A stretch of 64,000 bases of DNA, taken from assembly GCF_011045215.1 (NCBI RefSeq), contig NZ_CP049201.1; one strand, given 5' to 3'. This document shows positions 30,422 to 62,241 of the stretch, one piece after another. The translations under genes were made by a program, and so were the position numbers. The notes beneath the pieces were generated by a model. That model was not told the origin of the DNA, did not search any database, and was given only the letters and a program-made list of their open reading frames with translations. This DNA comes from Escherichia coli. GTDB taxonomy: Bacteria; Pseudomonadota; Gammaproteobacteria; Enterobacterales; Enterobacteriaceae. Positions within the stretch are counted from its first letter, which is position 1. Each line of letters begins with the position of its first letter.

Positions 30422-30639
30422 TGAAATAATTTCTGGAGGTATTAAGAATGAGAAATATGAATGATATTTCGTGGTAAATAATACAGTCTGCACTGAATTA
30501 ACCTTATCGGTTTATTAAACATCAGATCTACAAATGCTCAGTATTTCTCAGAGCATCAGGTCTGAATAGCAGCTATTTTCGCTATTGTAGCGGGAGTTGC
30601 TGCTATTTTACTAACCCATTAATGAAAAGAGAGGCTTTT

Positions 30640-40196: not shown

Positions 40197-40205
40197 GAAA
40201 GTTTC

Positions 40206-40733: not shown

Positions 40734-40748
40734 GTCAGGTTTATCAGA

Positions 40749-43700: not shown

Positions 43701-46700
43701 CTGGATAACCGTGAGGGTGGCCGGCTGGTCAGTGAAGGTGAACTCCGTCTGCATACGGGAGGCCTGCAGAACAGCCACGGACAGATACAGTCTGTGGGCG
43801 ACATTCTGTTCGACAGTGTACGGGGCGTTGTGGACAACGTCTCTGGTCTGATTCGCAGTGGTTCTGCCATTACGCTGAACGCCCTGCAGTTTATCAATCG
43901 CCACACGCAGAATACCGGCCAGGGGCTGGAAGCGCAGACAATACACATCACGACGCAGGACCTTGATAACCAGGAGGGCAGTATTCTGGCAGACAGGGCG
44001 CTTACGGTTATGGCAGACAGGACGCTCAGTAATAATGATGGCGTGCTCTCTTCCGGCGCGACATTGTCTGTCAGTGGCCGTCAGCTGGCGTTTTCGAACC
44101 GTGACGGCGTGGTTAAGGCCGGGCAGTCAGTCTCTGTGGATGTCGGTCAGCTTGGTGGTGACGGGAAACTGCTTTCGCCGGGCGATATAACGCTGAAAAG
44201 TAACACAGCGTTCAGTAACAGTGGTCAGACCATTGCAAACGGAAACCTTACGCTTTCCGTTAATGGCGATGTCTCTAATACCGGCAGCCTGCTGGCAGGC
44301 AGCCGGCTTGACCTGAACAGCATCCGCCTTGAAAACACAGAGAAAGGTGAAATCAGTGCCGGGCAGACCTGGCTTAACGTGACGGACACACTGCTGAACC
44401 GTGGGCTGATTGACGGGAAATATACGCATCTTCAGGCGAACACCCTGACGAATTCCGGTACCGGGCGAATCTACGGCGATGCTGTTGGTGTCAGCGCTGC
44501 CACATTTAATAATCTGGATGAAAATGGCGTGGCGGCGACGCTGGCCGGACGTGAGCGTGTGGACCTGGGGGTACAGACCCTGAATAACCGGACGCACAGC
44601 CTGATTTACAGTGCAGGTGATATGCATATCGGTGGCATGCTGGATGCGAATGGCGCCGCCACGGGGAAAGCCGGTGTACTGAATAATCACAGTGCCACGA
44701 TTGAAGCCGCCGGTTCCCTGACACTGAGTGCCGGGCAAATCAATAACGTCAATGACCATTTCACCACGGAGCGCGTGGTGGTCTCCACGGAAAAGGTGAC
44801 TGAGTATCAGCATCGCGGGTCAGATGTCCGCTGGAATGCAAAAGATGAGGGGGTGTTCATTGATAACAACTCCTCTGATGGACTGCTGAACCTGAACACG
44901 CCGGATGATACCGGACATAACAACGACCGGTTCACAAAATATGAATACACCCGTACCGTGGAGGAAACCCGGGTAAAAGACTCCGACCCGGGGAAAATAC
45001 TGTCCGGTGCCGGCATGACGGTTGTGGCAGACAAACTGCTTAATGACAAGAGCCAGGTGGTTGCAGGTGGTCTGCTGGATATGCAGGCCGGTGATGTGGA
45101 AAACGTCAGTGTCAGCGGAGAGCGCCATGTTACTGATAAAGGGACATCCACATATTATTACCGGATAAAAAGAAAAAATAAAAATGACAGGCAGGGGGAA
45201 AGAATTTCCCCTTACGAGCCGCCCCCCGTCATTCAGACCATCACGCTGAAGCCGGGAGAGCTCACCAGCCACGGACAGGTTCAGGGCAGCCAGGTCACGC
45301 TTTCTCCCCTGAAGCCACAGGGAACGGATGTACAGACAGGACTGACCGGAAATGTGGATGCGACAGTAGCCGTTACTGACCGGATACCGCTTCGCCCGGT
45401 GGTGTCAGCCGGTGAACCGGTCATTCTGTTGCCGGGGCAGCAGTTTGAAGTCAGCGCACCTCAGGGCAGTATCCATGTTGCCGGGCCGGATACCCGTCTG
45501 CCGGACAGCAGCCTGTTTAAAACAAATCCGGCAGTGAATGTGCCATATCTGGTTGAAACGGACCCGCGTTTTACGAACCAGAAGACGTGGCTGGGCAGTG
45601 ATTACATGCAGAAGGCGTTTTCTCAGAACGGGGATAACATGCTCAAACGCCTGGGGGATGGTTTTTACGAACAGCGTCTGATTCGTGAGCAGGTTGTCGC
45701 TCTGACCGGGCAACGGTACCTGGACGGATACAGTAATGATGAAGAGCAGTTTAAGGCGTTAATGGATGCGGGTATTGCATTTGGTAAGCAATACAACCTG
45801 ACACCAGGTGTGGCGCTGACTGCTGAGCAGATGGCGTTACTGACCGGTGATATTGTCTGGCTGGTTAACACCACGGTGACACTGCCGGACGGCAGCACGC
45901 AGACGGTTCAGGTACCTCAGGTGTATGCCCGTGTAAAACCCGGTGATGTGAACAGTGCCGGTGCGCTGATTGCCGGCAGGGACATGGTGATGAAGCTGGA
46001 TGGTGACCTGTTTAACAGCGGTAAACTGGCCGGGAAGCAGGCCGTGCAGCTCAGTGCAGAAAACATTCACAACCAGGCCGGCACCATTCAGGGAGCAAAT
46101 GTCAGCCTGACGGCCCGGACGGATATTAACAGTACCGGCGGGCTGCTGCAGGCCACGGACAGCCTGCTGGCGATGGCCGGACGGGATATCAGTCTGACCA
46201 CCACCACCCGTACGGCACAGCGCGACGCCGGGCAGAACCATTTTGAACGTACCAGTATCGACAGTGTGGCCGGCGTGTATGTGCAGAACGACCAGGGAAG
46301 ACTGGTGCTGCAGGCCGGACGGGATATGAATCTGACGGCGGCAACGGTGGTGAATCAGGGTAAGGACAGCCTGACACAACTCAGTGCCGGCAGGGATATG
46401 ACGCTTTCCACGGTGACCACATCCGCGCAGGACAATATTACCTGGGATAAAAATAATCGTCTGTCGCAGGGCGTCACACAGAATACGGGCAGCACACTTG
46501 CCGGTAACGGTGATGTCACGCTGACCGCCGGACGGGATATGACGTCACAGGCGGCATCGCTGTCAGCTCAGAAAGGCCTGGCCCTGATGGCGGGTCATGA
46601 CGTGACGCTGACCGGTGCACAGAATACCCGCTCGCTGGATGAATACCATAAAGTGACCGGCAACAGCGGGATGTTATCGAAAACCACCACTACCACGCAT

Positions 46701-49700
46701 GATGTCACTGACCGCCGGACCATGACGGGCAGTGAACTGAACGGGGATACGGTCAGTATCGGTGCCGGACATAATCTGAACGTCACGGGCAGCAGTGTGG
46801 CCGGGGATAACCGTGTCTCCCTGGCTGCCGGAAATAACCTGAGTATCGGAACGCTGACAGAAAGCAACCGTGAAACACACCTGAAACAGGAGAAAAAATC
46901 CGGACTGATGAGCTCCGGAGGTGTGGGATTCAGCGTGGGCAGCCAGAGTCTGAAGGTCACGGACACCGCAACAGACACCACGCAGAAAGGCAGCACGGTG
47001 GGGAGTGTTCACGGTGATGTTTCCCTTCAGGCAGGTAACCGGTTGACCGTCAACGGCTCTGACCTGATTGCCGGCAGGGACATGGCACTCAGTGGTAAGG
47101 AGGTCAGCATTACCGCCGCCACTGACCGGCATGTGCAGACACATACGGTGGAGCAGAAAACCTCCGGTCTGACGCTTGCCCTGTCCGGCACAGCGGGCAG
47201 CGCCCTGAACACGACGGTGGAGACCGTACAGGCGGCGAAATCTGCCGGAAACAGCCGGCTTGAAGCCCTGCAGGGGGTGAAGGCCGCGCTCTCGGGGGCT
47301 CAGGCCGTGCAGGCCGGACGACTGGCAGAAGCACAGGGCAACCAGAAAGAGAATAACAATACCGTGGGTATCAGCCTCTCTTACGGCAGCCAGTCTTCGA
47401 AATCAGAACAGCAGTCAGAGCAGACGGTGGCGAAGGGCAGTACACTGACCGCAGGTAATAACCTCAGTATTCAGGCCACCGGCTCCGGCGTGAAGGGCGT
47501 GGATGGTGACCTGACGATACAGGGCGGTCAGATAAAGGCCGGGAACAACGTTCTGCTGCAGGCAAACCGTGACGTGAATCTGGTATCAGCAGAAAACACG
47601 TCAAAGCTGGAAGGAAAGAACACATCCAGTGGTGGCAGCGTGGGTGTCGGTATCGGTGTGGGGCCCGGAGGGCCTGGTTTCAGTCTGTCAGCCAGCGCAA
47701 ACCAGGGTAAGGGCAGTGAAAAAGGCAACGGTACCACCCATACAGAAACCACGGTGGATGCGGGAAACCGGCTGACCATTATCAGCGGGCGGGACACCAC
47801 GCTTACCGGCGCGCAGGCTGGCGGTGAAACGGTGAAAGTGGATGCCGGTCGTCATCTGACACTGACCAGTGAGCAGGACAGTGACCGTTATGACAGTAAG
47901 CAGCAGAATGCCAGCGCCGGAGGCAGCTTCACTTTCGGGTCCATGAGCGGTTCGGCGAGTGTGAACCTCAGCCGGGATAAAATGCACAGTAACTACGACA
48001 GTGTACAGGAGCAGACGGGGATTTTTGCCGGCAGGGGCGGGTTTGATGTCACCACCGGACAGCATACGCAACTGAACGGTGCGGTGATTGCGTCCACGGC
48101 AACGGCAGATAAAAACAGGCTGGATACCGGCACACTGGGCTTCAGTGACACTGAAAACCGGGCTGACTTTAAAACGGAACATCAGAGTGCAGGGCTCAGT
48201 ACCGGTGGCAGTGTTGCCGGAAATTTCCTGGGGAACATGGCAAACAATCTGCTGGTCGGTGCAAATCATGAAGGCCATGCGGACAGTACCACGCAGTCGG
48301 CTGTGTCTGCCGGGAATATCACTATCCGGGATACACAGAGCCAGAAACAGGATGTGGCAGACCTGAACCGTGACGTTGCGCATGCAAACCAGACGCTGTC
48401 CCCCATCTTTGACAGGGAAAAAGAGCAGCAGCGGTTGCAGCAGGCGCAACTCATTGGTGAGATTGGTAACCAGGTGGCAGATATTGCCAGAACGGAAGGA
48501 CAGATAGCCGGTGAGAAAGCGAAGCGGGACCCGGCAGCACTGAATCAGGCCCGCGCAGAGCTTGAGGCAGCAGGAAAACCGTACACGGAACAGGATGTGG
48601 CACAGCGGGCCTACAATAACGGTATGGCAGCCTCCGGTTTTGGAACGGGAGGCAAATACCAGCAGGCGATACAGGCCGCAACGGCAGCGGTACAGGGACT
48701 GGCCGGCGGTAATCTGAGTGCAGCCCTGGCAGGTGGTGCAGCGCCGTATATTGCTGAAATTATCAAACAGACCACCCCGGACGGTGCGGGGCGTGTGGCA
48801 GCTCATGCAGTAGTGAATGCCGCCCTGTCTCTGGCACAGGGTAAGAATGCCCTTGCCGGTGCTGCAGGTGCAGCCACCGGCGAGGTGGTGGGAATGATAG
48901 CCACACAGATATACGATAAATCGGTGAGTGAACTGAGTGAGACAGAGAAACAGACGGTCTCCACGCTGGCAACGGTTGCTGCCGGCCTGGCCGGTGGTCT
49001 GGTGGGAGACTCGGGGGCTTCAGCGGTAGCCGGCGCACAGTCAGGTAAGACGACTGTTGAGAATAATTATCTTAGCGTGTCTGAAAAGACAGAGCTTGAG
49101 ATAGCAAAACAGAAGCTTAAAAACAGTAAAGATCCGGCAGAGCGTGAAAAGGCACAGCAGAAATATGATGCATTGCTTGAAAAAGATATCAGCAGTGATA
49201 AGGCAGTAATCGCTGCGTGCAGTAACGGACAGGCAGCCAGCGCAGCTTGTGCCGGTGAAAGACTGAAGGTTATTGCAGCTAAAGGAGGTTATGAAACCGG
49301 ACACTACAATAACCAAGTCAGCGATATGTATCCGGATGCTTACGGGCAGATAGTAAACCTGCTGAATATCACCAGTGTTGATGCACAAAATCAACAACAG
49401 GTGAAGGATGCGATGGTGAACTATGCCATGGTGCAGTTTGGGGTCGATAGGGCGACGGCACAGGCATACGTTGAAACTTATGATGGAATGAAAGTTGTAG
49501 CTGCTTCGATGGCACCAGTAATAGGTGCTGCGGCGGCCAGTAAGATAGAAGTTCTGGCTGGTAAACAACGCTTGTCTAATAGTTTCGAGGTTAGCTCACT
49601 TCCAGATGCAAATGGGAAAAATCACATCACGGCTGTAAAAGGTGATGCTAAAATACCTGTCGATAAGATTGAACTATATATGCGTGGTAAAGCTTCTGGT

Positions 49701-50069
49701 GACCTTGATTCTTTGCAAGCAGAATATAATTCTTTAAAAGATGCAAGGATTAGCAGCCAAAAAGAATTTGCAAAAGATCCAAACAATGCTAAAAGGATGG
49801 AAGTATTAGAAAAACAAATCCATAATATTGAGCGTTCTCAAGATATGGCTCGTGTATTAGAACAAGCAGGTATAGTGAATACTGCCAGTAATAACAGCAT
49901 GATAATGGATAAGTTATTGGACTCAGCTCAGGGGGCTACGTCTGCAAATAGAAAAACATCTGTTGTTGTATCAGGGCCTAACGGTAACGTAAGGATTTAT
50001 GCTACATGGACAATATTACCTGATGGCACGAAAAGACTTTCAACTGTTAATACGGGGACATTCAAATGA
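40749..50069 (+). CDS. cdiA: Contact-dependent inhibition exoprotein CdiA (3106 aa) with VENN-delimited C-terminal toxin
   Basis: Extended signal peptide MNKNCYRIIFNKARGMLMVVADIA, TPS domain (ANPAGISCDGCGF), long FHA-type repeat tracts, VENN at 49056-49067, AT-rich C-terminal 333 aa. Confidence 0.9.
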   Translation: MNKNCYRIIFNKARGMLMVVADIARSGRAGASPSSRTGYPRRQRICRVTSLAFSLWLASGMVHSVSAAGIVADHGAPGHQQPTITQTASGIPQVNIQTPSAGGVSHNTYSQFDVSHQGVILNNSHKNVQTQLGGMVAGNPWLAKGEARIILNEVNSRNPSQLNGFVEVAGKKAQVVIANPAGISCDGCGFINANRATLTTGQPQMKNGSLTGFSVERGEIQITGKGMDASRTDYTDIIARSVKINAGIWAQDLKVTTGRNNVDIAHGQTEKKAADASSQPQVALDVSSLGGMYAGKIRLVGTETGVGVRNAGHIGAQAGAVTLTADGRIENSGSISAKTDVHLVTTRELHNSGSVYAGQDTQIQSDGVFTHTGSVASRRNTRIQTARLTGGERSLLAAGVKDDGRLAAAGNLTVSTTGELAAHGQVLSGGDMQLKGQGLDLSNSRIQGQHTELDAGSGNLFTQNAQLSAGTLSARTAGQFSNNDGTINADTLQISAQSLSNHRGKLIQTGTGDFSLNLPGGVDNREGLLAANGAVRLDALSLDNRRGKVQAAQSGSLQVRTTGAVDNQQGSLIASRDILINTQALNNDNGLISAAAGTGRIKTQQAVSNTEGRMESAGRLDISAGSLNNHQGTVVSDGLSVTLDGALDNTSGRLLSQKTLSVSGSELVSDDGLIQSGSDMTLDVQDGVLSNRNTKTRGGISSAGTLTVRAGMLNNQQGFMAGQKDMTLNAGTLDNRQGVLGSQASLQISSGTLMNQKGALKAGTDMLLSGGDVSNQEGTLAAGGDLNAHLNVLENQQGTVVSNGNSRLDVTRSDNQGGRLVAQQSLTLSSTDISNDAGGLIQSGATLNLRADTLSNRNSGDRGGVISQGPMTLNAGTLDSTAGVLLSGDALSLTAGVVNNTSGQVVANGQIVATGLPGRNSLALNNQSGLIQGKGISINSAGRTLDNRGGTLNSLQELTVSTGAMDNRGGTVGAKTTADLSTTSLDNREGGRLVSEGELRLHTGGLQNSHGQIQSVGDILFDSVRGVVDNVSGLIRSGSAITLNALQFINRHTQNTGQGLEAQTIHITTQDLDNQEGSILADRALTVMADRTLSNNDGVLSSGATLSVSGRQLAFSNRDGVVKAGQSVSVDVGQLGGDGKLLSPGDITLKSNTAFSNSGQTIANGNLTLSVNGDVSNTGSLLAGSRLDLNSIRLENTEKGEISAGQTWLNVTDTLLNRGLIDGKYTHLQANTLTNSGTGRIYGDAVGVSAATFNNLDENGVAATLAGRERVDLGVQTLNNRTHSLIYSAGDMHIGGMLDANGAATGKAGVLNNHSATIEAAGSLTLSAGQINNVNDHFTTERVVVSTEKVTEYQHRGSDVRWNAKDEGVFIDNNSSDGLLNLNTPDDTGHNNDRFTKYEYTRTVEETRVKDSDPGKILSGAGMTVVADKLLNDKSQVVAGGLLDMQAGDVENVSVSGERHVTDKGTSTYYYRIKRKNKNDRQGERISPYEPPPVIQTITLKPGELTSHGQVQGSQVTLSPLKPQGTDVQTGLTGNVDATVAVTDRIPLRPVVSAGEPVILLPGQQFEVSAPQGSIHVAGPDTRLPDSSLFKTNPAVNVPYLVETDPRFTNQKTWLGSDYMQKAFSQNGDNMLKRLGDGFYEQRLIREQVVALTGQRYLDGYSNDEEQFKALMDAGIAFGKQYNLTPGVALTAEQMALLTGDIVWLVNTTVTLPDGSTQTVQVPQVYARVKPGDVNSAGALIAGRDMVMKLDGDLFNSGKLAGKQAVQLSAENIHNQAGTIQGANVSLTARTDINSTGGLLQATDSLLAMAGRDISLTTTTRTAQRDAGQNHFERTSIDSVAGVYVQNDQGRLVLQAGRDMNLTAATVVNQGKDSLTQLSAGRDMTLSTVTTSAQDNITWDKNNRLSQGVTQNTGSTLAGNGDVTLTAGRDMTSQAASLSAQKGLALMAGHDVTLTGAQNTRSLDEYHKVTGNSGMLSKTTTTTHDVTDRRTMTGSELNGDTVSIGAGHNLNVTGSSVAGDNRVSLAAGNNLSIGTLTESNRETHLKQEKKSGLMSSGGVGFSVGSQSLKVTDTATDTTQKGSTVGSVHGDVSLQAGNRLTVNGSDLIAGRDMALSGKEVSITAATDRHVQTHTVEQKTSGLTLALSGTAGSALNTTVETVQAAKSAGNSRLEALQGVKAALSGAQAVQAGRLAEAQGNQKENNNTVGISLSYGSQSSKSEQQSEQTVAKGSTLTAGNNLSIQATGSGVKGVDGDLTIQGGQIKAGNNVLLQANRDVNLVSAENTSKLEGKNTSSGGSVGVGIGVGPGGPGFSLSASANQGKGSEKGNGTTHTETTVDAGNRLTIISGRDTTLTGAQAGGETVKVDAGRHLTLTSEQDSDRYDSKQQNASAGGSFTFGSMSGSASVNLSRDKMHSNYDSVQEQTGIFAGRGGFDVTTGQHTQLNGAVIASTATADKNRLDTGTLGFSDTENRADFKTEHQSAGLSTGGSVAGNFLGNMANNLLVGANHEGHADSTTQSAVSAGNITIRDTQSQKQDVADLNRDVAHANQTLSPIFDREKEQQRLQQAQLIGEIGNQVADIARTEGQIAGEKAKRDPAALNQARAELEAAGKPYTEQDVAQRAYNNGMAASGFGTGGKYQQAIQAATAAVQGLAGGNLSAALAGGAAPYIAEIIKQTTPDGAGRVAAHAVVNAALSLAQGKNALAGAAGAATGEVVGMIATQIYDKSVSELSETEKQTVSTLATVAAGLAGGLVGDSGASAVAGAQSGKTTVENNYLSVSEKTELEIAKQKLKNSKDPAEREKAQQKYDALLEKDISSDKAVIAACSNGQAASAACAGERLKVIAAKGGYETGHYNNQVSDMYPDAYGQIVNLLNITSVDAQNQQQVKDAMVNYAMVQFGVDRATAQAYVETYDGMKVVAASMAPVIGAAAASKIEVLAGKQRLSNSFEVSSLPDANGKNHITAVKGDAKIPVDKIELYMRGKASGDLDSLQAEYNSLKDARISSQKEFAKDPNNAKRMEVLEKQIHNIERSQDMARVLEQAGIVNTASNNSMIMDKLLDSAQGATSANRKTSVVVSGPNGNVRIYATWTILPDGTKRLSTVNTGTFK

Positions 50070-50551
50070 TAAATGTGAATAGTACCGCAAAGGATATTGA
50101 AGGTTTAGAAAGTTACCTAGCTAATGGCTATGTAGAGGCTGACTCTTTTAACGACCCAGAGGATGATGCGTTAGAGTGTCTCAGTAATTTATTAGTTAAA
50201 GATTCGAGGGGGGGGCTGTCATTTTGTAAAAAAATACTTAATTCAAATAACATTGATGGTGTTTTTATTAAAGGTTCGGCGCTGAATTTCTTATTATTGT
50301 CAGAACAGTGGTCTTACGCCTTTGAGTATTTGACAAGCAATGCGGATAATATAACTCTTGCAGAGCTTGAAAAGGCGCTTTTCTATTTTTACTGTGCAAA
50401 AAATGAGACAGATCCTTATCCTGTACCAGAGGGTTTATTCAAAAAACTGATGAAAAGATATGAAGAACTGAAAAATGACCCTGATGCAAAATTTTATCAT
50501 CTTCATGAAACGTACAATGATTTTTCAAAAGCTTATCCTCTGAATAATTAG
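50066..50551 (+). CDS. cdiI: Putative CdiI immunity protein for the main CdiA-CT
   Basis: 161-aa AT-rich ORF; start overlaps cdiA stop (ATGA at 50066-50069). Confidence 0.6.
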   Translation: MINVNSTAKDIEGLESYLANGYVEADSFNDPEDDALECLSNLLVKDSRGGLSFCKKILNSNNIDGVFIKGSALNFLLLSEQWSYAFEYLTSNADNITLAELEKALFYFYCAKNETDPYPVPEGLFKKLMKRYEELKNDPDAKFYHLHETYNDFSKAYPLNN

Positions 50552-50780
50552 AAGCTATCGCCATGGAATATTGTCTATGACTGCATGGAAGGATGATGGT
50601 CATAGTGTGTTGGGAGCTATTCTTTAACAGATTTGGGGGAAATGGTGTAACTGGCTGAAAGGGCGCGTCAGGGCAAAAAGTTGTTGCGCCGGAATTATAG
50701 CAGGACAAAGCGGTTTTAACGCGCTGAAAGCACAGGGAAAACTTGTTTTATCACAGCAACCTGCGGCGGAAAGAGTTGTT

Positions 50781-51716
50781 GTTGAGAATAACTTTTTGAC
50801 CGCGGATCAGATCGATAGCTTTGCGGCAAAAGCAAAAGGGTGTGAAGTACGTGGCGACTGCAAACAGATTGTAAAGGAGATGGAGGAGCTCAGCCTTAAG
50901 CAACAGCAGGAAATGATAGCTGTCTGCGCAACAAACCCTGCGGCCTGCAAAGAGAAATTCGGCGATATACCAGCTAAAGGAATGCTTGTACGAGAAGCGA
51001 TAGATCGTGTGTTAGGTGCAGATGTACCGTCTGCAATGAAGAATGATATGTCTTCGTTGTTAGCTCAGCAGATCGAAGCGGAAGGTGTTGTTACCAGTAC
51101 TGAATTTGCCTGTCAGCTACAAAATCGTTACGGTATAGACAAGCAACAGGCTGAAATCCTTGCCGTCGCAGCATTGGGAGCAGTGACAGGTGGGATGGGG
51201 AAATCAGGTACTTCAACGGTAACTAAAAACATCGTTGTGGTTAATTCAGGTAAGAAAGGGGCCTGGAATCAAGCAATGAATAAGCCGGAACCGAATACCG
51301 TTTATAAGGTCGATGGAAATAAAACATACCAGACTGATGCATTGGGAAGAACTAGTTCAGTTGAGGGTATACTAGTTGCTTCGAAAAGCGACAGAAACAC
51401 TTATCAGCAATGCAAGGCCGGGAAATGTGGTAGCTCTGGTGATGAAGGTGGTCATTTAATTGCCAGTATTTTTAATGGTCCTGGCGAAAAACTCAATCTT
51501 GTTCCTATGGATGGCAACCTGAATAAAGGTGTATGGAAACAGATGGAAAACACATGGGCTAATGCTTTGAAAGATGGCAAACAAGTTAATGTTAAAATAG
51601 AACCTGTTTACACTGGGGAGAATAAGCGTCCTGAAAGCTTTAGTGTAACATACTCTATTGATGGAGGCCGTCCTGTTATCAAAGACATCAGCAACACACC
51701 TGGAGGGGTAAAATGA
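50781..51716 (+). CDS. Orphan cdiA-CT module 1 (VENN-prefixed toxin domain, activity unknown)
   Basis: VVENN at 50781-50792 without upstream CdiA body; about 310 aa follow, with a His-containing segment GDEGGHLIASIFNG. Confidence 0.6.
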   Translation, partial: VENNFLTADQIDSFAAKAKGCEVRGDCKQIVKEMEELSLKQQQEMIAVCATNPAACKEKFGDIPAKGMLVREAIDRVLGADVPSAMKNDMSSLLAQQIEAEGVVTSTEFACQLQNRYGIDKQQAEILAVAALGAVTGGMGKSGTSTVTKNIVVVNSGKKGAWNQAMNKPEPNTVYKVDGNKTYQTDALGRTSSVEGILVASKSDRNTYQQCKAGKCGSSGDEGGHLIASIFNGPGEKLNLVPMDGNLNKGVWKQMENTWANALKDGKQVNVKIEPVYTGENKRPESFSVTYSIDGGRPVIKDISNTPGGVK

Positions 51717-52051
51717 ACGAATTAGATGATCTGCATAATAAAATAGGTCAGTTATTAGTGGATGCCGGTCCTGCTAATGCGATGAAGATCATTGCTCGTG
51801 CTAAATTATCACTAGATGGTGAGTCATGTGAGTATGAGTATGATTATCTTGATCAAGAGGGAGATGAAGATTGGTTCGTTCCTGATAAGTTAGCCAGTCA
51901 CGATCTTAGGCTACTGTTAGTTAAAATGAGGGATTTTTACATCCGAAATAATATGACTAACGGGAAACCAGCATGGATAGGTTGTGAAATAATCGTTGAT
52001 ATACCAGAAGAAAAAATTAGCATAAACTTTCAATATGATGATGAACTATGA
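51713..52051 (+). CDS. Orphan cdiI module 1 (putative immunity protein)
   Basis: 112-aa acidic ORF; start overlaps the orphan toxin stop (ATGA). Confidence 0.55.
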   Translation: MNELDDLHNKIGQLLVDAGPANAMKIIARAKLSLDGESCEYEYDYLDQEGDEDWFVPDKLASHDLRLLLVKMRDFYIRNNMTNGKPAWIGCEIIVDIPEEKISINFQYDDEL

Positions 52052-52215
52052 TCTAGGCCCCGGGATCTCCACAATGCCCATAGCGTGTACGGTGGAACAA
52101 AGCGTGTCGGGGAAAAAATCGGCGGGCAGCGAAACGCAACAGAATAAAGGTTGTAACAAACTGAAAGAAAAGGGGAAAATCGTCTCCTTCACCACAATGC
52201 GCGTCAGAGAGAGTT

Positions 52216-52710
52216 GTTATTGAGAATAACTTCTTAAGCTCTAAAGAAGCCCGACAATTCGATGAAGAACTGGTGGAATGCAAGGCTTCTGGTGGAGACT
52301 GTAAATCTGTTATTCAGAAATATCTGGATATCAGCAACCAAAACAGTAAGGAACTGGCTGAAGCCTGTACTGGCGGTGGTGTTGCATGCGTAACTTGGGA
52401 GGAATTAATTCAGGGAAGGACTAATGTTGCTAATGTTGCTAATGATCCACATTCCGGACAATTCAGACTGGATGAAAAACTTAAGGATCCCGATGCGGTC
52501 GCTATTGTGAATTATCTCAACGGCTCAGACCTCAAGTTCCTTAAAGATAATATTACAGAGGGGGATCGCTTACTGTCTGTTATCAGCGATCCAACTTCAT
52601 GGCCTGTTGCTGTAATGGGAGGAAAGGCCTTTATCACCAATGCAGTCAATAATACTAAAGAACAGCTTATAGCTGTGGGGGTTGGTGTTGGATTAGGGGC
52701 CGGTATTTAG
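52216..52710 (+). CDS. Orphan cdiA-CT module 2, N-terminal part (VIENN-prefixed)
   Basis: VIENN at 52216-52230, then Cys-containing region ECKASGGDCKSVIQKY similar to module 1; ends at TAG 52708-52710. Confidence 0.5.
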   Translation, partial: VIENNFLSSKEARQFDEELVECKASGGDCKSVIQKYLDISNQNSKELAEACTGGGVACVTWEELIQGRTNVANVANDPHSGQFRLDEKLKDPDAVAIVNYLNGSDLKFLKDNITEGDRLLSVISDPTSWPVAVMGGKAFITNAVNNTKEQLIAVGVGVGLGAGI

Positions 52711-52751
52711 CAACAGGCAGCGTTGCCCTGTTACCGGGGAGTGCCCAGGCT

Positions 52752-53231
52752 ATGTGGTTACTTGGTGCCGGGACAAATGCCGGGATGCAGTATGCAGATA
52801 GTGGTGAAATAAACCCGGTCAACTCAGTGGCAGCAGGCTGGATAAATGTGATAACCATGGGGCAGGGCTGGAAAGGGACAATAGCCTGGAATGCGGCAGG
52901 TGGAGCATTAACCAACGCCATAAACGGAGATGATCCTCTTACTGGGGCGATTACAAATGGAGCGGGGGCCGGGTTTGGATATGGGGTTGGCAATTATGTG
53001 GTCAAGCCTGCTGCAAATACAATCGGTAAATGGATAACCGGTGGCTGGAATCCTAAATTCGATCCGACTCTACTAAAATATACTGAAGTTAAAGGGCAGT
53101 TAGGTCTATCTAAAGAAATGGTACCGAGTAAGATCCCTGGTGCTGTGGGTAATGCGGGTGGTAGTTTATCATCTGAGTTTGGAAGCTCCATTATCCAGAA
53201 AAAGAAAGATGCAATGGAGGCTGGGAAATGA
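52752..53231 (+). CDS. Glycine-zipper-rich protein, probable C-terminal toxin part of orphan module 2 (different frame)
   Basis: 159-aa ORF with Gly-rich hydrophobic stretch (GAITNGAGAGFGYGVGNYVV); stop overlaps the next small gene. Confidence 0.45.
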   Translation: MWLLGAGTNAGMQYADSGEINPVNSVAAGWINVITMGQGWKGTIAWNAAGGALTNAINGDDPLTGAITNGAGAGFGYGVGNYVVKPAANTIGKWITGGWNPKFDPTLLKYTEVKGQLGLSKEMVPSKIPGAVGNAGGSLSSEFGSSIIQKKKDAMEAGK

Positions 53232-53461
53232 AGAACCTTCTTATTGTTGTCTTATTAATGACTGTATGCATATTTGGTTTGTTTATAGTCGGTTCGATTT
53301 TTTATCTTCTTCTGAAGATATTTATGTATTTTTATTTGAATGCCCCAATATCATTTGAAGTTTTTCAGTTTTCTAGACTGTTAAAAATGAGTGTGTATGG
53401 GGGGGGGATCTTAGGCTTGGGTATTGGTTTGTTGCATATCATGAAAGTTAAGGGGTTCTGA
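53228..53461 (+). CDS. Small two-helix membrane protein, putative immunity protein of orphan module 2
   Basis: 77-aa very AT-rich ORF with two hydrophobic helices; ATGA overlap with upstream ORF. Confidence 0.5.
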   Translation: MKNLLIVVLLMTVCIFGLFIVGSIFYLLLKIFMYFYLNAPISFEVFQFSRLLKMSVYGGGILGLGIGLLHIMKVKGF

Positions 53462-53464
53462 AAT

Positions 53465-53605
53465 GTTGTTGAGAATAACTACCTCAGCTACGACGAGGTA
53501 CATGCTTTTGACAGAGAAATGACTGTCTGTCGTAAAGCTGATCGTGAATGCGGAGATATTCAGAACAAGTATGCTGTAATTAATGCTGATAACCGGTTGA
53601 AATAG
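53465..53605 (+). pseudogene. Orphan cdiA-CT module 3 remnant (VENN plus 41 codons)
   Basis: VVENN at 53465-53479 followed by a short Cys-containing peptide and stop at 53603-53605; no immunity gene follows. Confidence 0.5.
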
Positions 53606-53726
53606 CATATTAATGTAGCTGTTGTTCCTCTGACGTATCAACCACCCTCAGAGTGATTGACATCAGATAGAAATATTAGCATCATTATTTCATCAAATAA
53701 CTCTCATTAACAATGGAGATAATAAA

Positions 53727-54284
53727 ATGAAAAAACTGTCAGTTCTTTCAGCCATCATATTATCAGTGGCAAGCGGTTCCGTGCTGGCTGACAACCATTC
53801 GTTTTCTGTCGGTTATGCACAGAGTAAAATTCAGAACTTCAAGAATATTAGAGGGGTAAACCTGCAGTACAGGTATGAATGGGACTCCCCGGTCAGTATT
53901 ATGGGCAGTTTCTCCTGGATGAAAGGGGATGGTAATCAGGAATATCATTCATATGGCGATTCAATTAAAAACCAGGTTGATGCAAAATATTATTCCTTAC
54001 TGACCGGCCCCGTATGGCGCATTAACGATTATATGTCACTGTATGCGGCTGGCGGCGTGGCGCATGTTAAAGCTGATGGTAAAACAGCATGGACAAACGT
54101 TGATGGTTATTTCGCCAGAGAAAATATTTCGAAAAAATCCACATCTTTTGCTTATGCTGCCGGGGTAATGATCAATCCGACAAGTAATATTACAATTAAT
54201 GCCGGATATGAAGGAACCAGAGCAAAACTTGGCGATAATTATTCCATTAATGGATTCAATATTGGCGTGGGTTATCGCTTTTAA
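53727..54284 (+). CDS. Ail/Lom/OmpX/PagC-family outer-membrane beta-barrel protein
   Basis: 185-aa ORF with signal peptide, alternating aromatic/hydrophilic strands, terminal ...GVGYRF. Confidence 0.75.
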   Translation: MKKLSVLSAIILSVASGSVLADNHSFSVGYAQSKIQNFKNIRGVNLQYRYEWDSPVSIMGSFSWMKGDGNQEYHSYGDSIKNQVDAKYYSLLTGPVWRINDYMSLYAAGGVAHVKADGKTAWTNVDGYFARENISKKSTSFAYAAGVMINPTSNITINAGYEGTRAKLGDNYSINGFNIGVGYRF

Positions 54285-54852
54285 TAAAGTAGAATGAACA
54301 TAATAGCGTTCATATCTGTTTTTTTACTTAACCAAGCGGTACATATATGTACCGCTTGTCTGTAATAAATCAATACCGCCTGTAACGGTACGAATGACTA
54401 TTGCCATGAACGCAATCATGTTTCTGTTGTTGCCGAACATCGTTCTGTGCAGAGGCTTTTGGTGTGCCTTCCATCAGCCAGCGTAATGATTCTCAGGCAA
54501 TTTTGTATCGTTTCGGTTAACTCATACTGATGCGTCGGTGGCGGGGCATCCGAACGATCGCAGTCTGACAATGGTCGATTTATTTTGCTTGCGCAGGGGC
54601 GAGCGCCAGGCTGGTATCGGAGGCGGGTTCTGAAGGACTGAGTCGGGTAATTGCGTCAGGTCGCGAAGTACTGACACGGGTACTGGTGGCAGGTGATGAA
54701 GTGCAGCCCCGGGAATGGCTCCGGGCTGACTCAGGTTCTGATTCGCTGTCAGCCCGCGTGGTGGCTGGCCTGGCTCATTTCCTGTCGTCAGGCGTTCAAC
54801 TCCCGACTGCAGATTATGGCACGCTGCAAGAACACCTGACGACAGGTATCAC

Positions 54853-56355
54853 TCACCCGGAGAAGGTAAATCCCTCAAGGGGCAGCAACTCTGCCAGTCG
54901 CTCCTCTGGCCATTCCGGCAGACGCGCCAGGACGTCTGTCAGCCAGGCATGTGGCTCCAGACCATTACGTTTTGCCGTTTCCAGAAGGCTCATTATCTGT
55001 GCCGCGCGGTTTCCGGCCATCAGTGAACCGGCGAACAACCAGGCCTTTCGTCCCATAACGACCGGGCGGATAGCACGCTCGCAGATATTGTTGTCCAGGG
55101 GCACGGCTCCGTCACCCAGGAAGCAGCTCAGTTCATCGCGCCGGTTCAGGATATAATTAATCGCTTTGTTTAGTGGTCCGTCGGGCGGACAGCACGGCTC
55201 CTGCTCTTCAAGCCAGGCAAACAGGTCATTCACTATCGGCCGGGAATACCGTTGTCGCCATTGCCGTATTTTTTCCACAGGACGTTCACGGATGAACTTC
55301 TCAATGCGATAAAGACCCGCGATTTTTCTCAGCGCCATGGCTGCACGGGGCTCCCTGCTGGCCTTATACAGACTGGCGAAGCCGCGTCTTGCGTGGCTCC
55401 AGCAACAGGCAGATGTAATACCGGGGTCATTATCCGCCAGAGATTTGTACACGCTGTATCCGTCACTCACCAGCGTGCCACCACGCCAGCCCTGCAGCCA
55501 GGCCTCAGGATATCTGAGGGCCCGTCCGGTCTGCGAGTCAAAACAGACGACCGGCGGGCCGCTTCTTTCTCCGCTGACGTAAGCCCACAGCCAGCCGGAG
55601 CAGGATTTACCGCCTTTCCGGGTATCAAGGAGCCTCAGGGACGTTTCATCTGCATGAATAACATCCCGTGTCAGAAGCTCGTGGCGTAACAATTTTGCCA
55701 GCGGGGCCAGTGCAGCGCCAGCAACACCGACCATATCCGCCATTGTACTGACGGGGAGCTCCACACCCATTCGGGAGAAAATGTGCTGCTGGCGATACAG
55801 GGGCAGATGGTCGGTATATTTGCTGATGACAACCTGTGCGATGACCGATGGCTCAACAGCACTTTTCGGAAGGATATGTGCCGGCATTTTTCCGCTGAAC
55901 ACTTTCTCACAGCAGGGACAGCTGTACTGCGGGCGGATATAGCGGTGGACCACAACCTGTGCGGGGATATATTCCAGCTTCTCGCTGACTTCATCGCGAA
56001 TGAAGTGCAGGGGGGCATCACAGTCAGGACAACGTTCCTCAGCTGGCGGGATAACCTTTTCAGCACGGGGAAGATGTGAAGGCAAGGGCTTACGAACAGG
56101 ACGTGTTGTTTTTTCTTCGTCCCCGGTCTGAGGAAGCAGTTTGTCCAGACGCGCCGAGATTTCTGCGATATCCGCGTCAACATCCTCTTCGAACAGGGAA
56201 CGCTGCATCCCGGCCAGCGATTCGCATTTTTTACCAAAACGCTGCTGGCGTGCGAGCTTCATCTGCTCTTCCAGGATGCGGATACGGTTCTGAAGTTCTG
56301 CAATATTCCGGTCTTTTTCCAGCACCATATTTGCAAGGTTCTGACTCTCAGCCAT
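54853..56355 (-). CDS. IS66-family transposase TnpC
   Basis: 500-aa ORF; N-terminal leucine-zipper-like coiled coil, Cys-rich zinc-finger region (CPDCDAPL...CPCCE), DDE-type core. Confidence 0.8.
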   Translation of the reverse strand: MAESQNLANMVLEKDRNIAELQNRIRILEEQMKLARQQRFGKKCESLAGMQRSLFEEDVDADIAEISARLDKLLPQTGDEEKTTRPVRKPLPSHLPRAEKVIPPAEERCPDCDAPLHFIRDEVSEKLEYIPAQVVVHRYIRPQYSCPCCEKVFSGKMPAHILPKSAVEPSVIAQVVISKYTDHLPLYRQQHIFSRMGVELPVSTMADMVGVAGAALAPLAKLLRHELLTRDVIHADETSLRLLDTRKGGKSCSGWLWAYVSGERSGPPVVCFDSQTGRALRYPEAWLQGWRGGTLVSDGYSVYKSLADNDPGITSACCWSHARRGFASLYKASREPRAAMALRKIAGLYRIEKFIRERPVEKIRQWRQRYSRPIVNDLFAWLEEQEPCCPPDGPLNKAINYILNRRDELSCFLGDGAVPLDNNICERAIRPVVMGRKAWLFAGSLMAGNRAAQIMSLLETAKRNGLEPHAWLTDVLARLPEWPEERLAELLPLEGFTFSG

Positions 56356-56474
56356 GGCTTTTGCACCATGGCAATTGCCAGAGCGCGAAGCTGTTCAGGG
56401 TCACTGGTGGTACTGAGAAGCGAGATATCCATGCGGTGGATTATATGACATCACGCATGGATATTCATTATATT

Positions 56475-56876
56475 TCATTGAGTTATTGCGTTGCTCTGAG
56501 CATCTTCGGGTTCTTCCTGGTATACCCATTTTGCCAGGTCATGCCCTTTCACCTGTTGCCAGTCAACCCCACAGACCAGCCAGTGAAACTCATCCTGTGT
56601 GAGATGCCATGTGGCATCACCTTTCCGGGGCCAGCGGAAGCTTCCCCGGTGCAGTCGTCGGGTACACAGCCATACGCCATGTTTGTCCCACCGGAGAACT
56701 TTTATGCGGGAGCGGACTTTATTGGTGAAGACAAAAGCAGCACCGTCATGCCATGCAGCGTTAAGTTCGTTCTGGACGTACTGTGTCAGTGTGTCGATAC
56801 CCCGGCGCATATCGACGGGTTTTACGACCAGGAATACGTTATCAGGCGTCAGCATGGCGAAGAGCCCGGAAAACAT
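56475..56876 (-). CDS. IS66-family accessory protein TnpB (Orf2)
   Basis: 133-aa ORF (MLTPDNVFLVVKPVDMRRG...) between tnpA and tnpC. Confidence 0.7.
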   Translation of the reverse strand: MFSGLFAMLTPDNVFLVVKPVDMRRGIDTLTQYVQNELNAAWHDGAAFVFTNKVRSRIKVLRWDKHGVWLCTRRLHRGSFRWPRKGDATWHLTQDEFHWLVCGVDWQQVKGHDLAKWVYQEEPEDAQSNAITQ

Positions 56877-57171
56877 CGGTTAACTGAGAAGGCTGGCAGC
56901 ACATCCGGATACCTCCGGGAAGGAAAAGTGTGACAGGCTCATCCGACAATGGTCTGCCATCAGCCATACCGGGAGCGCCAGACACTGAAACTGGAATAAT
57001 TTCAGGTGCTCTGGCTCGTTTTTCGGCTTTTGCAACATCCTGCGGCCACTGGCGCAGGGATTTAAACGGAATGTCGTAAAGTTCACAGTACTGTTCACGG
57101 GTAAGGCCGCTTGCGCGCCATGCGGCAACGTGATGTTTTTTCTGATCAAGCGTCCATCGTATCCTGGGCAT
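56842..57171 (-). CDS. IS66-family accessory protein TnpA (Orf1)
   Basis: 109-aa ORF with HTH-like N-terminus, overlapping the tnpB start. Confidence 0.65.
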   Translation of the reverse strand: MPRIRWTLDQKKHHVAAWRASGLTREQYCELYDIPFKSLRQWPQDVAKAEKRARAPEIIPVSVSGAPGMADGRPLSDEPVTLFLPGGIRMCCQPSQLTDVFRALRHADA

Positions 57172-57288: not shown

Positions 57289-57771
57289 ATGAATAAATAC
57301 TTAATTATTTTATTTTTTATTGCTGACACTTCTAACGCTTCAGAAGCTATATCAAATAAGTACACAATAGATTCAGACAGTCAGTTAATATTATCGAATG
57401 GAAATATTAAGGCTGTTGGCAATGTACACGCTGTAAGCGGGGACATGACTATTGATGCAGATGAAGCTATTTATCATCGTGAAACCCCTGATAACACCTA
57501 TATAACTGCCACAGGGGATCCAATAAAATACAATGGGATAACAGAAGATGGCAAGCCGTTTTCAGGAAACTCGAAAAAGCTTAAATATACTCCCAAAACA
57601 GGAGAGGTGATCCTGACAGACGAAGCTTTTGTCCAACAGAGTGGAAATTCTCTGTCGGCCGAAGTAATAACATATAACACCATCACAAGAAAAATGACAG
57701 CCTCAGCAACTCCCGGTAAAAGAGTAAGGAGTGTGATTTATCCTGACAATATATCCCAGAATGAAAAATAA
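57289..57771 (+). CDS. Secreted LptA/OstA-N-like domain protein
   Basis: Signal peptide MNKYLIILFFIADTSNASEA, then repetitive beta-strand pattern resembling the LptA fold; AT-rich. Confidence 0.45.
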   Translation: MNKYLIILFFIADTSNASEAISNKYTIDSDSQLILSNGNIKAVGNVHAVSGDMTIDADEAIYHRETPDNTYITATGDPIKYNGITEDGKPFSGNSKKLKYTPKTGEVILTDEAFVQQSGNSLSAEVITYNTITRKMTASATPGKRVRSVIYPDNISQNEK

Positions 57772-59779: not shown

Positions 59780-60535
59780 TTAACTCGTTTTTTCGATGCT
59801 TTCCACTACCGGGGGGTTTTTCCTCAGGGACTCTCCCTGAAGGACCAGTCTGTGTGAGTTATGTACCAGTCTGTCCAGGATGGCATCTGCTGTTGTTGGG
59901 TTCTCCATCAGACCATGCCATTTATCTACCGGGAACTGGCTTACCACTATCGTGCTGCTTTGACCGTAACGATCTTCTATGAGCTCCAGAAGGTCATTAC
60001 ACTGGGCGTTACTTAACTGTTCCAGCCCCAGATCGTCCAGGATTAGAAGCTGTATTTTTTGCAACTGTTTCAGATATTTCAGCCAGCTGCCATCAACACG
60101 TCCCTGAGTCAGTTCTTCCAGTAATCGCCCGGTTCTACAGTACCGGACGCTGTGTTTCTGTCTACATGCCTGTTCGCCCAACGCATTGGCTATCCAGCTT
60201 TTGCCGCATCCTGTCGGACCGGTTATCAGCAGGTTTTTCCTGTGGATTATGTAGTGACCGTTCAGCAGCTCCCTCATCTGTTCAGCCCGCAGACCTCTTG
60301 AGGCCGGATAGCGCAGCCCTTCCGGTGTTGCCTGGTATTTCAGACCGGCATTTTTTCTCAACCGTGCCACACGATTGGTTTCTCTGCTCAGAAGCTCGTC
60401 ATCAACCAGCTGCGTCAGCCTTTCCTCGAACGACAGTTCGTCGTAAGTCTGAGGCGTTTCCCGCTGCCGTATCAGGCTCCCGGCCATCGCCGGGAGTTTC
60501 AGTTGGGTCAGTTTGTTTAACAGATTATCACTCAT
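59780..60535 (-). CDS. istB: IS21-family helper ATPase IstB
   Basis: Walker A GPTGCGKSWIANALG and Walker B LLILDDLG; start chosen at MSDNLLNKLTQL (251 aa). Confidence 0.8.
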   Translation of the reverse strand: MSDNLLNKLTQLKLPAMAGSLIRQRETPQTYDELSFEERLTQLVDDELLSRETNRVARLRKNAGLKYQATPEGLRYPASRGLRAEQMRELLNGHYIIHRKNLLITGPTGCGKSWIANALGEQACRQKHSVRYCRTGRLLEELTQGRVDGSWLKYLKQLQKIQLLILDDLGLEQLSNAQCNDLLELIEDRYGQSSTIVVSQFPVDKWHGLMENPTTADAILDRLVHNSHRLVLQGESLRKNPPVVESIEKTS

Positions 60536-60551
60536 TCGGTTGTTCCTTCTG

Positions 60552-62087
60552 TCAGTGGTAGTAGCCAGGACCACGCAGGTTTTCATGCTCTGAAGCATAT
60601 GCCGGATGTTGTTCGCCCTGGCGGGATAACGGAAGCTCAACGTTATCCCGATGATGACGCAGCAGATTGTCGATAAAGCGTCTGTCCGGGGCGTTATAGT
60701 GCAGGGCAACGTAACAGGCCTTTTCCAGCCGTTCCGGGCCGTATTTTTTCTGAAGTGCCAGCAGACCCAGGACTGCACGGTAAGCCAGCTCCGGATGGGG
60801 TTTGGCTTTCAGCATGGATTCAACCACCCGGCCTGTGGACGGACCTGTACGGTTTCCCTGCTCGATAAGGCGTTCCGGTGTCCATGTCCCATGCCGCCGG
60901 TGGCGTTCTGGCATGTGAAGCGGATTGGTTGTGTGTTTATATTCATGTGTGCTGCGCGGATGTTGCGCCACACACTGCCCCTTGTGCCAGAGTTGTACCA
61001 CCGACTGCCCCGCCTTCAGTGACAGACGCTGACCGACCAGTTCGTGTGGAACGGAGTACCAGTGACGGGCATATTCAACGTGATAGTCAGGGCCAACCTT
61101 CACGGCTTTGTATTCCGTGTATTCATAAGGTGCCAGAGGCAGCGGAGAGAGTGCTGGCGCATCCAGTATGCGGAAGCGTTCTGCACGGGTTTGATTGCCG
61201 TACCCCTTCATTGGCCGGTTATTCATGTCTGTCAGTAACTCCCGAAGGCGCGCATTCAGCGCCCTGAGCGTGTGGAAGGTTTCATTACGGATGCGGGCAA
61301 GAAGCCATCGTTCGACGATGAGGACGCCGTTTTCTGCTTTTGGTTTATCTTTAGGTTTGCGTGGTCGGGCCGGGATAATAACCGTGCCATAGTGCTCAGC
61401 CAGCGCCTGATAACTGTCGTTGATGACAGGCTCATAGCGATCGGCTTTTTTCACTGCGCTTCTGAGGTTATCGGGGATGAGCAGCTTCGGTACGCCGCCC
61501 AGGAAGGTCAGGCAACGGCTGTGGGCATTTAACCATGACATCATGTCCTGACCTTCGCACGCTTCAACATAGGTATAGTTGGACGCCCCCATTACAGCCA
61601 CGAAGATTGCCACGCGGCGTATCTCTCCGGTGTCCGGATTAATAACAGGGACCGTAGGACCACAGAAGTCGATAAAGAGCTTTTCGCCAGCACGATGCTC
61701 CTGTCGCATGGAGAGGCGTCGCGTTTTTTTCCACTTCCGGTAGCAACGGCAGAAGTGTGAGTATCCCATCGCTTTGTCACCCGCCTGTGCCTTGTATTCC
61801 ATCCACAACAGTTGGCGCGTCACGCCAGGTTTTCTCATTTCCGTATCGAAGTACAGCATGTCAGGCATAACAAGCTCCGACGCAGAGGTGTCTTTGGGCG
61901 GGTAAATGAGTTTCTCCAGCGTGTCATGGGATATATCAGCAGGTAATGGCCATGACAGAGAAGAGGCTTTGAAGCGTGCAAGAACCTCAAAAACGGTTGA
62001 GGCGCTGATGTGTAATGTCAGCCCGATACAACGGTTAGTCAGCTTCTGGTCGAACTTGAGCTGAAGGATCTTAAAACAGGTTTCCAT
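60552..62087 (-). CDS. istA: IS21-family transposase IstA
   Basis: DDE integrase-like core upstream of istB; start METCFKIL chosen, the longer ORF start at 62198 lies in flanking IS sequence. Confidence 0.75.
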   Translation of the reverse strand: METCFKILQLKFDQKLTNRCIGLTLHISASTVFEVLARFKASSLSWPLPADISHDTLEKLIYPPKDTSASELVMPDMLYFDTEMRKPGVTRQLLWMEYKAQAGDKAMGYSHFCRCYRKWKKTRRLSMRQEHRAGEKLFIDFCGPTVPVINPDTGEIRRVAIFVAVMGASNYTYVEACEGQDMMSWLNAHSRCLTFLGGVPKLLIPDNLRSAVKKADRYEPVINDSYQALAEHYGTVIIPARPRKPKDKPKAENGVLIVERWLLARIRNETFHTLRALNARLRELLTDMNNRPMKGYGNQTRAERFRILDAPALSPLPLAPYEYTEYKAVKVGPDYHVEYARHWYSVPHELVGQRLSLKAGQSVVQLWHKGQCVAQHPRSTHEYKHTTNPLHMPERHRRHGTWTPERLIEQGNRTGPSTGRVVESMLKAKPHPELAYRAVLGLLALQKKYGPERLEKACYVALHYNAPDRRFIDNLLRHHRDNVELPLSRQGEQHPAYASEHENLRGPGYYH

Positions 62088-62241
62088 AGTGCTCCTGGAT
62101 TTTCTCTTTCTGGACATTGCCGTCTCCATTGGTTTAAACACGGCAATGAAGACTGTGGCGAAAAGAGTTAATTCCCGGAGTGACTGGCAGGATGCCAATC
62201 AATGATCGGAAGCGTGCCAAATCGTGATCGATTGTGATGCC

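Follow-up and report, generated by a model that had tools for sequence, protein, structure and literature searches.

What are the VENN-prefixed reading frames that stand, without a CdiA body of their own, directly downstream of the cdiI gene in an Escherichia coli genome, and what could the cell gain from carrying them? The frames occupy positions 50552 to 53635 of a stretch of 64,000 nt, hereafter the window (NCBI assembly GCF_011045215.1, contig NZ_CP049201.1), behind a locus for the contact-dependent inhibition of growth (CDI). A first-pass annotation, made from the letters of the window, regarded them as three orphan toxin modules with a common entry domain, forming a reservoir of displaced toxin/immunity cassettes. 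Our analysis partly supports this view, which was right on the kind of thing and overshot in the count of three modules, in the common entry domain and in the pre-toxin homology that it proposed. The region is a classic orphan cdiA-CT/cdiI array (CT, the C-terminal toxin region of CdiA), an ordinary example of an already known kind. It very probably serves as a bank of immunity genes together with one toxin that can be reloaded onto CdiA. For annotation the lesson is that "three modules" would come down to a single toxin and two immunity genes that are usable, besides three fragments that are dead.

VENN sites and the cassettes between them

Codons for (V/I)ENN begin at 49056, within cdiA, and again at 50781, 52219 and 53468, the last two each preceded by a codon for V (52216 and 53465); the three further motifs noticed downstream of cdiI are thus all present. 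The four sites lie on the + strand and each is followed by [YF]L[ST], so the motif that they have in common is an extended one, VENN[YF]L[ST]. The VENN-coding 11-mer TTGAGAATAAY occurs four times, always on the + strand and within 4.4 kb (49057–53479), against 0.06 occurrences expected from shuffled sequences, while a six-frame scan for [VI]ENN peptides gave just two further, isolated matches elsewhere, roughly the chance level. As had been claimed, none of the downstream frames has a CdiA body, or indeed a start codon, before its VENN.

The arrangement is not an artefact of assembly, because a 4.3-kb stretch recurs at 99.8–100% identity in at least nine contigs of other, independently assembled E. 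coli genomes (draft and Logan assemblies), including GCA_009900925.1, which is 100% identical to the array over 4,301 nt. Among 5,426 complete genomes, none carries at least 80% of the array stretch in one place. Two E. coli draft assemblies (L025 and L026) possess an identical block of cdiI, the first orphan and the second, composite one behind differing upstream cassettes; in L026 the CT of the resident toxin (EC3006 type) is itself an orphan, with a pre-VENN fragment of 538 aa. The differing upstream cassettes imply that the block is older than its present attachment to the resident cdiA.

To define the cassettes, every VENN-coding site was extracted from 16 related loci. In all of these the sequence before a VENN is set by the preceding cassette, and the sequence after it belongs to the next cassette and varies by strain. 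The EC3006 cassette always ends in …KLVLSQQPAAERVV/VENN, the cassette of the first orphan (O1) in …PSPRCASERVV/VENN, whatever comes next, and that of the second (its 3' part, O2b) in …KVKGF-stop-NV/VENN. The boundaries of BLAST matches (50792, 50781, ~52230 and 53465) agree with the VENN sites. The non-coding 3' tail of the EC3006 cassette (50552–50780, +), in which the stretch from the stop at 50625 to VENN is free of start codons, travels with the EC3006 CT and cdiI whatever cassette follows (matches over 50000–50792 at 97–99.7%). Over 82 nt it shares 73% identity with the O1 cassette's own tail (52052–52218, +), and the latter tail follows O1-type cassettes in four other loci (L004, L007, L008 and L014). 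A cassette is therefore a VENN-to-VENN unit: the VENN codons lead into an entry domain and a toxin domain, after which come the immunity gene and a brief non-coding tail. Other strains carry such units in a different order, or joined to full-length cdiA, and the same VENN-to-VENN structure was seen for modules EC869 o7 and strain 254 o1 (Poole et al. 2011, PMC3150448). The array thus offers a worked example of cassettes exchanged exactly between VENN codons. Recombination homology upstream of the orphan VENN sites, which the first-pass annotation proposed to look for, did not appear in the alignment: the orphans share with the resident cdiA 12 identical nt (TGTTGAGAATAA), those of the VENN codons, and no pre-VENN sequence.

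One complete orphan, one chimera and one stub

O1 (50781–52051, +, with its cdiA-CT at 50781–51716) is the only complete predicted toxin/immunity module of the array. Its frame stays open for 311 codons from VENN and encodes an entry domain of ~170 aa, with a probable DUF6862 segment (PF21726, E=1.3e-4) right after VENN, followed by a C-terminal DNase domain of the Endonuclea_NS_2 family (PF13930, E=5.3e-39, model positions 1–132 of 132) in which the GHLIA motif of the active-site region is present. A counterpart of it is the CT of the full-length CdiA protein WP_077878363.1 from the second cdi locus of E. coli 1303 (304/311 residues identical, 97.7%), and the immunity gene behind the 1303 cdiA encodes a protein identical to that of O1 (112/112). 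Isolate 1303 is listed by Halvorsen 2024 (PMC11630599, Table 2) as toxin type 6, an Endonuclease NS_2 DNase with MetI-dependent entry, and the Pfam domain of O1 is the same. In 1303, however, the CT is fused to full-length CdiA and accompanied by a more diverged orphan copy, whereas O1 is detached and lacks a start codon; the assignment to MetI is that of the published table. Our searches of the PDB gave no match to the O1 entry domain at E<=10, and its relatives joined to other toxins (P0250, P0256 and P0271) gave no link to the MetI-associated structure 5T86. In other genera, DUF4258 toxins and further ones carry this ~170-aa domain, and the joins to DUF4258 appear consistent with what is listed for the MetI-dependent family 1 (Bartelli 2022).

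The immunity gene of O1, cdiI-o1 (51713–52051, +; 112 aa), overlaps the toxin frame by ATGA and has its own Shine-Dalgarno sequence (SD), GGAGGGG. Its product is acidic (24 acidic against 11 basic residues) and aligns weakly, over its whole length and below significance (E=0.07), with the YezG-like immunity family PF04634. This recalls the Staphylococcus aureus pair EssD (EsaD) and its YezG/EsaG-type immunity protein, since the O1 nuclease domain also matches EssD (8GUO, E=1.1e-15); delivery differs, being by type V CdiA for O1-type toxins and by type VII secretion for EssD. O1-type toxin frames are open from VENN in 14 of 15 loci, with pairwise dN/dS of 0.23–0.33 for the toxin and 0–0.29 for its immunity gene (small counts).

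The second orphan had been read as one toxin frame coupled to a small downstream gene. A search with its reconstructed protein revealed two classes of relatives, one 98% identical over the C-terminal half and the other 50–61% identical over the full length; in the alignment, one CT type accounts for the 163 codons that follow IENN (~97% identity) and another for the last 174 codons (98–99%). By this alignment it is two fragments, O2a and O2b, an out-of-frame fusion of two truncated cassettes in which the immunity gene alone appears intact. A three-way alignment places the illegitimate recombination junction at 52705–52707 (+), in an ATT microhomology of 3 nt where the two frames differ by one base. 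Among the 5,426 complete genomes, O2a-type matches all end at 52707 and O2b-type matches all start there. The left parent reads GGTATT/CAATAC (main cdiA-CT of strain SCU-152) and the right parent GCATT/AGCAAC (an orphan of strain 08-00022). The fused frame meets a TAG at once. Of the two couplings claimed earlier, both ATGA overlaps (51713 and 53228) do exist, but the IENN frame stops at 52708–52710 and never reaches the second of them.

O2a (52219–52710, +) consists of IENN and 163 codons of a group-4 ionophore CT with a YciB-type entry domain. Up to 52707 it is 97% identical at the nucleotide level to the SCU-152 main cdiA-CT, and residues 10–138 match 4G6U_A, the YciB-dependent CT of EC869-o11 (E=2.1e-7); relatives at 84–86% nucleotide identity stand on the full-length CdiA proteins WP_073535323 and WP_097742568, both entered among the group-4 proteins in the S1 Appendix of PMC11630599. 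The cut falls exactly at the start of its own ionophore domain (GVGLGAGI/QYGTTGE), and the immunity gene (74 aa in SCU-152) is missing. An in-frame tandem duplication of 9 nt at 52423–52440 (+; AATGTTGCT twice) gives NVANVAN, where SCU-152 and other relatives have NVAN. The common entry domain suggested for O1 and the second orphan does not extend that far: O1 and O2a are 29% identical over 58 residues only, O2a scores E=0.028 against DUF6862, and beyond this first part the entry domains differ. As far as alignment tells, the two have an N-terminal subdomain in common rather than an entire entry domain. The segment with Cys residues that follows VENN, on which the suggestion was built, is indeed found in both; it is found in the third orphan as well (CRKADREC).

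O2b (52707–53231, +) represents the 3' 174 codons of an alpha-helical ionophore CT of group-6 type, with an internal ATG at 52752 that opens an ORF (open reading frame) of 159 aa. It is identical at 173 of 174 positions to an intact 225-aa orphan CT of strain 08-00022 and shares 50–54% identity with the main CTs of A12 and TB06051. The latter two are listed in the S1 Appendix of PMC11630599 beside the group-6 strains 8.0127, ERS1497042 and FSIS12028765, with identical search statistics, and have a short entry domain (VENNLLGGSE…SCSDNPSGEAC) that O2b has lost together with VENN (~45 codons). The GxxxGxxxG zipper is kept (GAGFGYGVG, at the invariant alignment columns G256/G260/G264). As for the five-helix bundle predicted for type 10 ionophores (Halvorsen 2024), an AlphaFold2 model of O2b is mostly helical, with five long helices, but at a confidence too low to rely on (mean pLDDT, the predicted local distance difference test score, 45; predicted template modelling score 0.28). 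Exact matches to the 159-aa ORF come from the non-chimeric arrangement only.

The gene that follows, cdiI-o2b (53228–53461, +), overlaps O2b by ATGA, has its own SD (GGAGG) and encodes a predicted membrane immunity protein of 77 aa with an N-terminal transmembrane segment, a Gly-rich hydrophobic segment at the C-terminus and a GRAVY (grand average of hydropathy) value of 1.43. CdiI proteins of CDI ionophores are very hydrophobic two-helix hairpins of 72–100 residues (PMC11630599), and in size and type the predicted product fits this description. In TB06051 and 1303, matches to the O2b-type ionophore end at 53153: the final ~25 codons differ, and so does the immunity gene, whose product has 76 aa and 38% identity; the divergent 3' end and immunity gene fit the reported co-variation of ionophore helices with CdiI.

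Thus O2a and O2b divide between them the two-domain architecture of the type 10 ionophores (Halvorsen 2024): O2a has a group-4 (YciB) entry domain only, and O2b only an ionophore domain related to group 6 (DtpA/DtpB), with the zipper and the 77-aa hydrophobic CdiI, whereas their intact parents have both domains, as has the parent of the third orphan. The junction resembles the engineered hybrids of entry and ionophore domains (PMC11630599), but it falls outside the domain linker and leaves the two parts out of frame. We found no earlier description of this fusion, which is a natural, non-functional counterpart of those hybrids and a worked example of illegitimate natural recombination in ionophore CTs, between entry domain and toxin domain. 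As a route from O2a into O2b, programmed -1 frameshifting at the sequence GGT-ATT-TAG was considered and rejected: there is no slippery heptamer, and tRNA-Ile would need to re-pair on UAU.

The third orphan, O3 (53465–53635, +), is a stub of a third ionophore CT. VVENN and 44 codons end in a TAG at 53603–53605, where the parent has Leu; the length of 46 codons given earlier for this remnant was correct, and decayed homology goes on after the stop for about ten recognisable codons, to ~53635. At the nucleotide level the stub is 83% identical to the beginning of the CT in a full-length cdiA carried by plasmids of E. coli M9 and M19; that CT has a YciB-like entry domain and a Gly-zipper C-terminus. 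The stub has no immunity gene. Judged by its reading frame, O3 is dead, a nonsense-terminated stub. The block of cdiI-o2b, O3 and the Ail/Lom-family gene behind it stays together in many strains. In E. coli UMNF18 (L016, 14001–14856) a relic of this block, reduced in its cdiI-o2b part to the final codons but with the O3 stub and Ail/Lom gene, lies next to an IS110 element; the tRNA-Phe island around it has no cdi locus.

Each orphan CT is thus, by alignment, related to a CT borne by a full-length CdiA elsewhere (1303, SCU-152, A12/TB06051 and the M9 plasmid). Described as a reservoir of toxin/immunity cassettes, the array does hold orphan cdiA-CT/cdiI cassettes, but only O1 is complete, the second is a fusion of two truncated cassettes and the third a stub; that the cassettes are displaced we infer. 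Immunity genes have outlived toxins here, two intact cdiI genes standing against one intact orphan toxin.

Expression and the most probable function

Signals for expression are unevenly distributed over the array. Between the upstream in-frame stop and VENN there is no ATG, GTG or TTG in O1, O2a or O3, and O2b has no VENN. The first in-frame starts after VENN (TTG 50796, ATG 50880 and GTG 52273) lack a usable SD: none precedes TTG 50796, and at ATG 50880 an AAGGAG stands directly against the start codon (zero spacing). GGGGAG stands 10 nt upstream of ATG 52752 in O2b, and the SDs of cdiI-o1 and cdiI-o2b are good and normally spaced. From 49800 to 54400, that is from cdiA to the Ail/Lom gene, no terminator-like site was found on the + strand. 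Promoter-like matches are at chance level (10, against 11.9 expected from shuffles), the best one (53657–53685) lying ahead of the Ail/Lom gene; that the orphans have promoters of their own was rejected, since consensus matches do not exceed shuffle expectation.

By analogy with EC93 we infer that transcripts starting at the cdiBCAI promoter read through into the array. The toxins of the orphans would be silent, presumably untranslated because VENN is preceded by neither a start codon nor a ribosome-binding site, and the two orphan immunity genes would be translated from their own ribosome-binding sites. CdiI-o1 and CdiI-o2b could then protect the cell against neighbours armed with the 1303-type DNase or with this ionophore variant. 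A deletion or exchange of 1,725 bp from VENN to VENN (49056 to 50781) would load O1 in frame onto CdiA and switch the weapon, at the cost, if by deletion, of the EC3006 CT and its cdiI. Loss of the resident CT/cdiI on reloading is a drawback discussed by Poole et al., who also reported that in Yersinia pestis Microtus a deletion fused an orphan to cdiA (PMC3150448). O2 and O3 are, from their truncated frames, unable to yield a working toxin. O2a would add an entry domain alone, and O2b would give no toxin because it lacks VENN and the entry domain, and CDI ionophores depend on their entry domain and its receptor for toxicity even when they act from within the cell (PMC11630599).

The array resembles the orphan modules described by Poole 2011 (PMC3150448) in EC93, EC869, strain 254 and Yersinia in most respects: the place downstream of cdiI and on the same strand, VENN-prefixed frames without an initiation codon, a cdiI with its own SD (after O1 and O2b, with none after O2a and O3), homology between strains that runs from one VENN to the next, flanking insertion sequences (IS) and relatives on full-length cdiA. 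It differs in that no orphan here keeps pre-VENN cdiA sequence (12 nt in common), that one unit is an out-of-frame fusion and that a toxin is possible from one orphan of three. Its parts have published counterparts in the orphan modules (Poole 2011), in toxin types 6, 9 and 10 with their entry domains (Halvorsen 2024; Bartelli 2022) and in cdiC loci (PMC9086364). Such arrays are of interest for what they show of the way in which strains of E. coli keep immunity genes, and toxins in reserve, for contact-dependent competition.

Several points weigh against a bank of immunity genes with one reloadable toxin. The O1 toxin frame is open and under purifying selection, though presumably untranslated, and an immunity bank alone does not explain its conservation. 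The Prokaryotic Genome Annotation Pipeline (PGAP) annotates an endonuclease ORF of 260 aa (783 nt) from the internal ATG at 50880 in several other strains, so some internal translation is possible. The orphans and the resident cdiA have no more than the 12 nt of VENN in common, and RecA-dependent homologous recombination usually needs far more; reloading may therefore be very rare or require another mechanism. The O2b model is of low confidence, and it is the anatomy of the array that is known from sequence, while transcription, translation, toxicity and immunity are deduced from it. The question of mechanism could be answered by a dedicated, integron-like exchange of cassettes, with the VENN-coding sequence as the crossover site in place of ordinary homologous recombination and the O2a/O2b joint as a failed shuffle of entry and ionophore domains. 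This is suggested by the strict VENN-to-VENN boundaries, the portable tails (73% over 82 nt) and the 12–17 nt in common at joints; we nevertheless regard it as very unlikely.

The PGAP ORF also invites the idea that the orphans are autonomous cassettes of toxin-antitoxin (TA) type that stabilise the island by addiction, with internal starts (TTG 50796 or ATG 50880 in O1, ATG 52752 in O2b) and neutralisation by the coupled immunity genes. The ATGA overlaps do couple toxin frames to immunity genes, GGGGAG precedes ATG 52752, and cytosolic production of some CDI ionophores is toxic (PMC11630599). Yet neither O1 start has a properly spaced SD, promoters are not enriched, O2b lacks the entry domain that toxicity from inside requires along with a receptor, and the orphan CT protein of EC93 was not detectable (Poole 2011, PMC3150448). 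Since cassettes prefixed by VENN and found on CdiA tips elsewhere are explained by CDI and not by TA biology, we consider addiction very unlikely. Still less probable, in our estimate, is that the array is junk in decay, pseudogenes left behind by earlier cdi rearrangements, none of its parts being functional today. O2a, O2b and O3 are truncated, and the IS66 and IS21 elements, like the UMNF18 relic without a cdi locus, show that fragments can persist passively; but the O1 toxin and both immunity frames are intact, cdiI-o1 is 100% identical to the copy in a functional context in 1303, dN/dS stays below 0.35 with the toxin frame open in 14 of 15 loci, and both immunity genes have kept good SDs. 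As for chance VENN matches in frames unrelated to CDI, the shortness of the motif alone speaks for them, and they are refuted, to a degree that leaves almost no room for doubt, by the four occurrences where 0.06 were expected, the extended motif in common, the Pfam and PDB matches and the near-identity to CTs on full-length CdiA.

The resident locus and the surrounding island

The resident cdi genes and every orphan lie on the + strand (38457–53635). The TpsB-type transporter gene cdiB (38457–40196, +) was recognised as an ORF, with ShlB/FhaC/HecB genes syntenic upstream of cdiA in related loci. Between it and cdiA lies cdiC (40206–40733, +), which encodes an acyltransferase of the HlyC family (PF02794, E=4.6e-32) and makes this a cdiBCAI locus; CdiC-dependent lipidation of CdiA in STEC_O31 has been reviewed (PMC9086364). 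CdiA is a protein of 3106 aa (40749–50069, +) with VENN at 49056–49067, and its CT (49056–50069, +) is a tRNase of the EC3006 type (from E. coli 3006) with a PtsG-type entry domain: from VENN on it matches 6VEK_A (E=2.4e-214) and 6CP8_A (E=1.4e-99), and the EC3006 toxin is type 9/PtsG in Table 2 of Halvorsen 2024 (PMC11630599). The adjoining cdiI (50066–50551, +), encoding immunity to the EC3006 tRNase, matches 6CP8_C and 6VEK_I (E=1e-105). GC content drops from ~58% to ~40% at the VENN site of cdiA. No NCBIfam family matched the orphan toxins, the orphan immunity proteins, cdiI or cdiC.

To the left, the macB-clpA region of the window is ~98% identical to many complete E. coli genomes. Right after clpA there are two CRISPR-DR4 repeats with one spacer (24837–24924, +; 50.1 bits each), followed by a match to RtT RNA (25028–25163, -; 46.3 bits against a gathering threshold of 45). 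A P4-type integrase (25381–26583; NF007246, E=9e-55) marks the start of a low-GC island, although ARAGORN found no tRNA gene in the whole window. Five island ORFs of very low GC (26771–28588, 30622–32073, 33012–33575, 34148–34651 and 34942–35715) could be assigned to no family of NCBIfam or PADLOC. The corresponding chromosomal site is occupied in other strains by Zorya or TOTE defence systems.

To the right, directly after the O3 stub, is the gene for an outer-membrane protein of the Ail/Lom family (53727–54284, +; NF011777, E=6e-45, below the curated cut-off); the junction between O3 and this gene is kept in 25 complete genomes. A complete IS66-type element follows (54853–57171, -), with tnpC at 54853–56355 and two small accessory ORFs, and further on an IS21-type element (59780–62198, -; IstB at 59780–60778, E=6e-76). 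Orphan arrays of other strains are interrupted by similar IS66 remnants. Between the two elements, and within the island, a protein of 160 aa (57289–57771, +) matches LptA (TIGR03002, E=5e-28, above the cut-off) and looks like an extra LptA-like periplasmic protein encoded outside the lpt operon.

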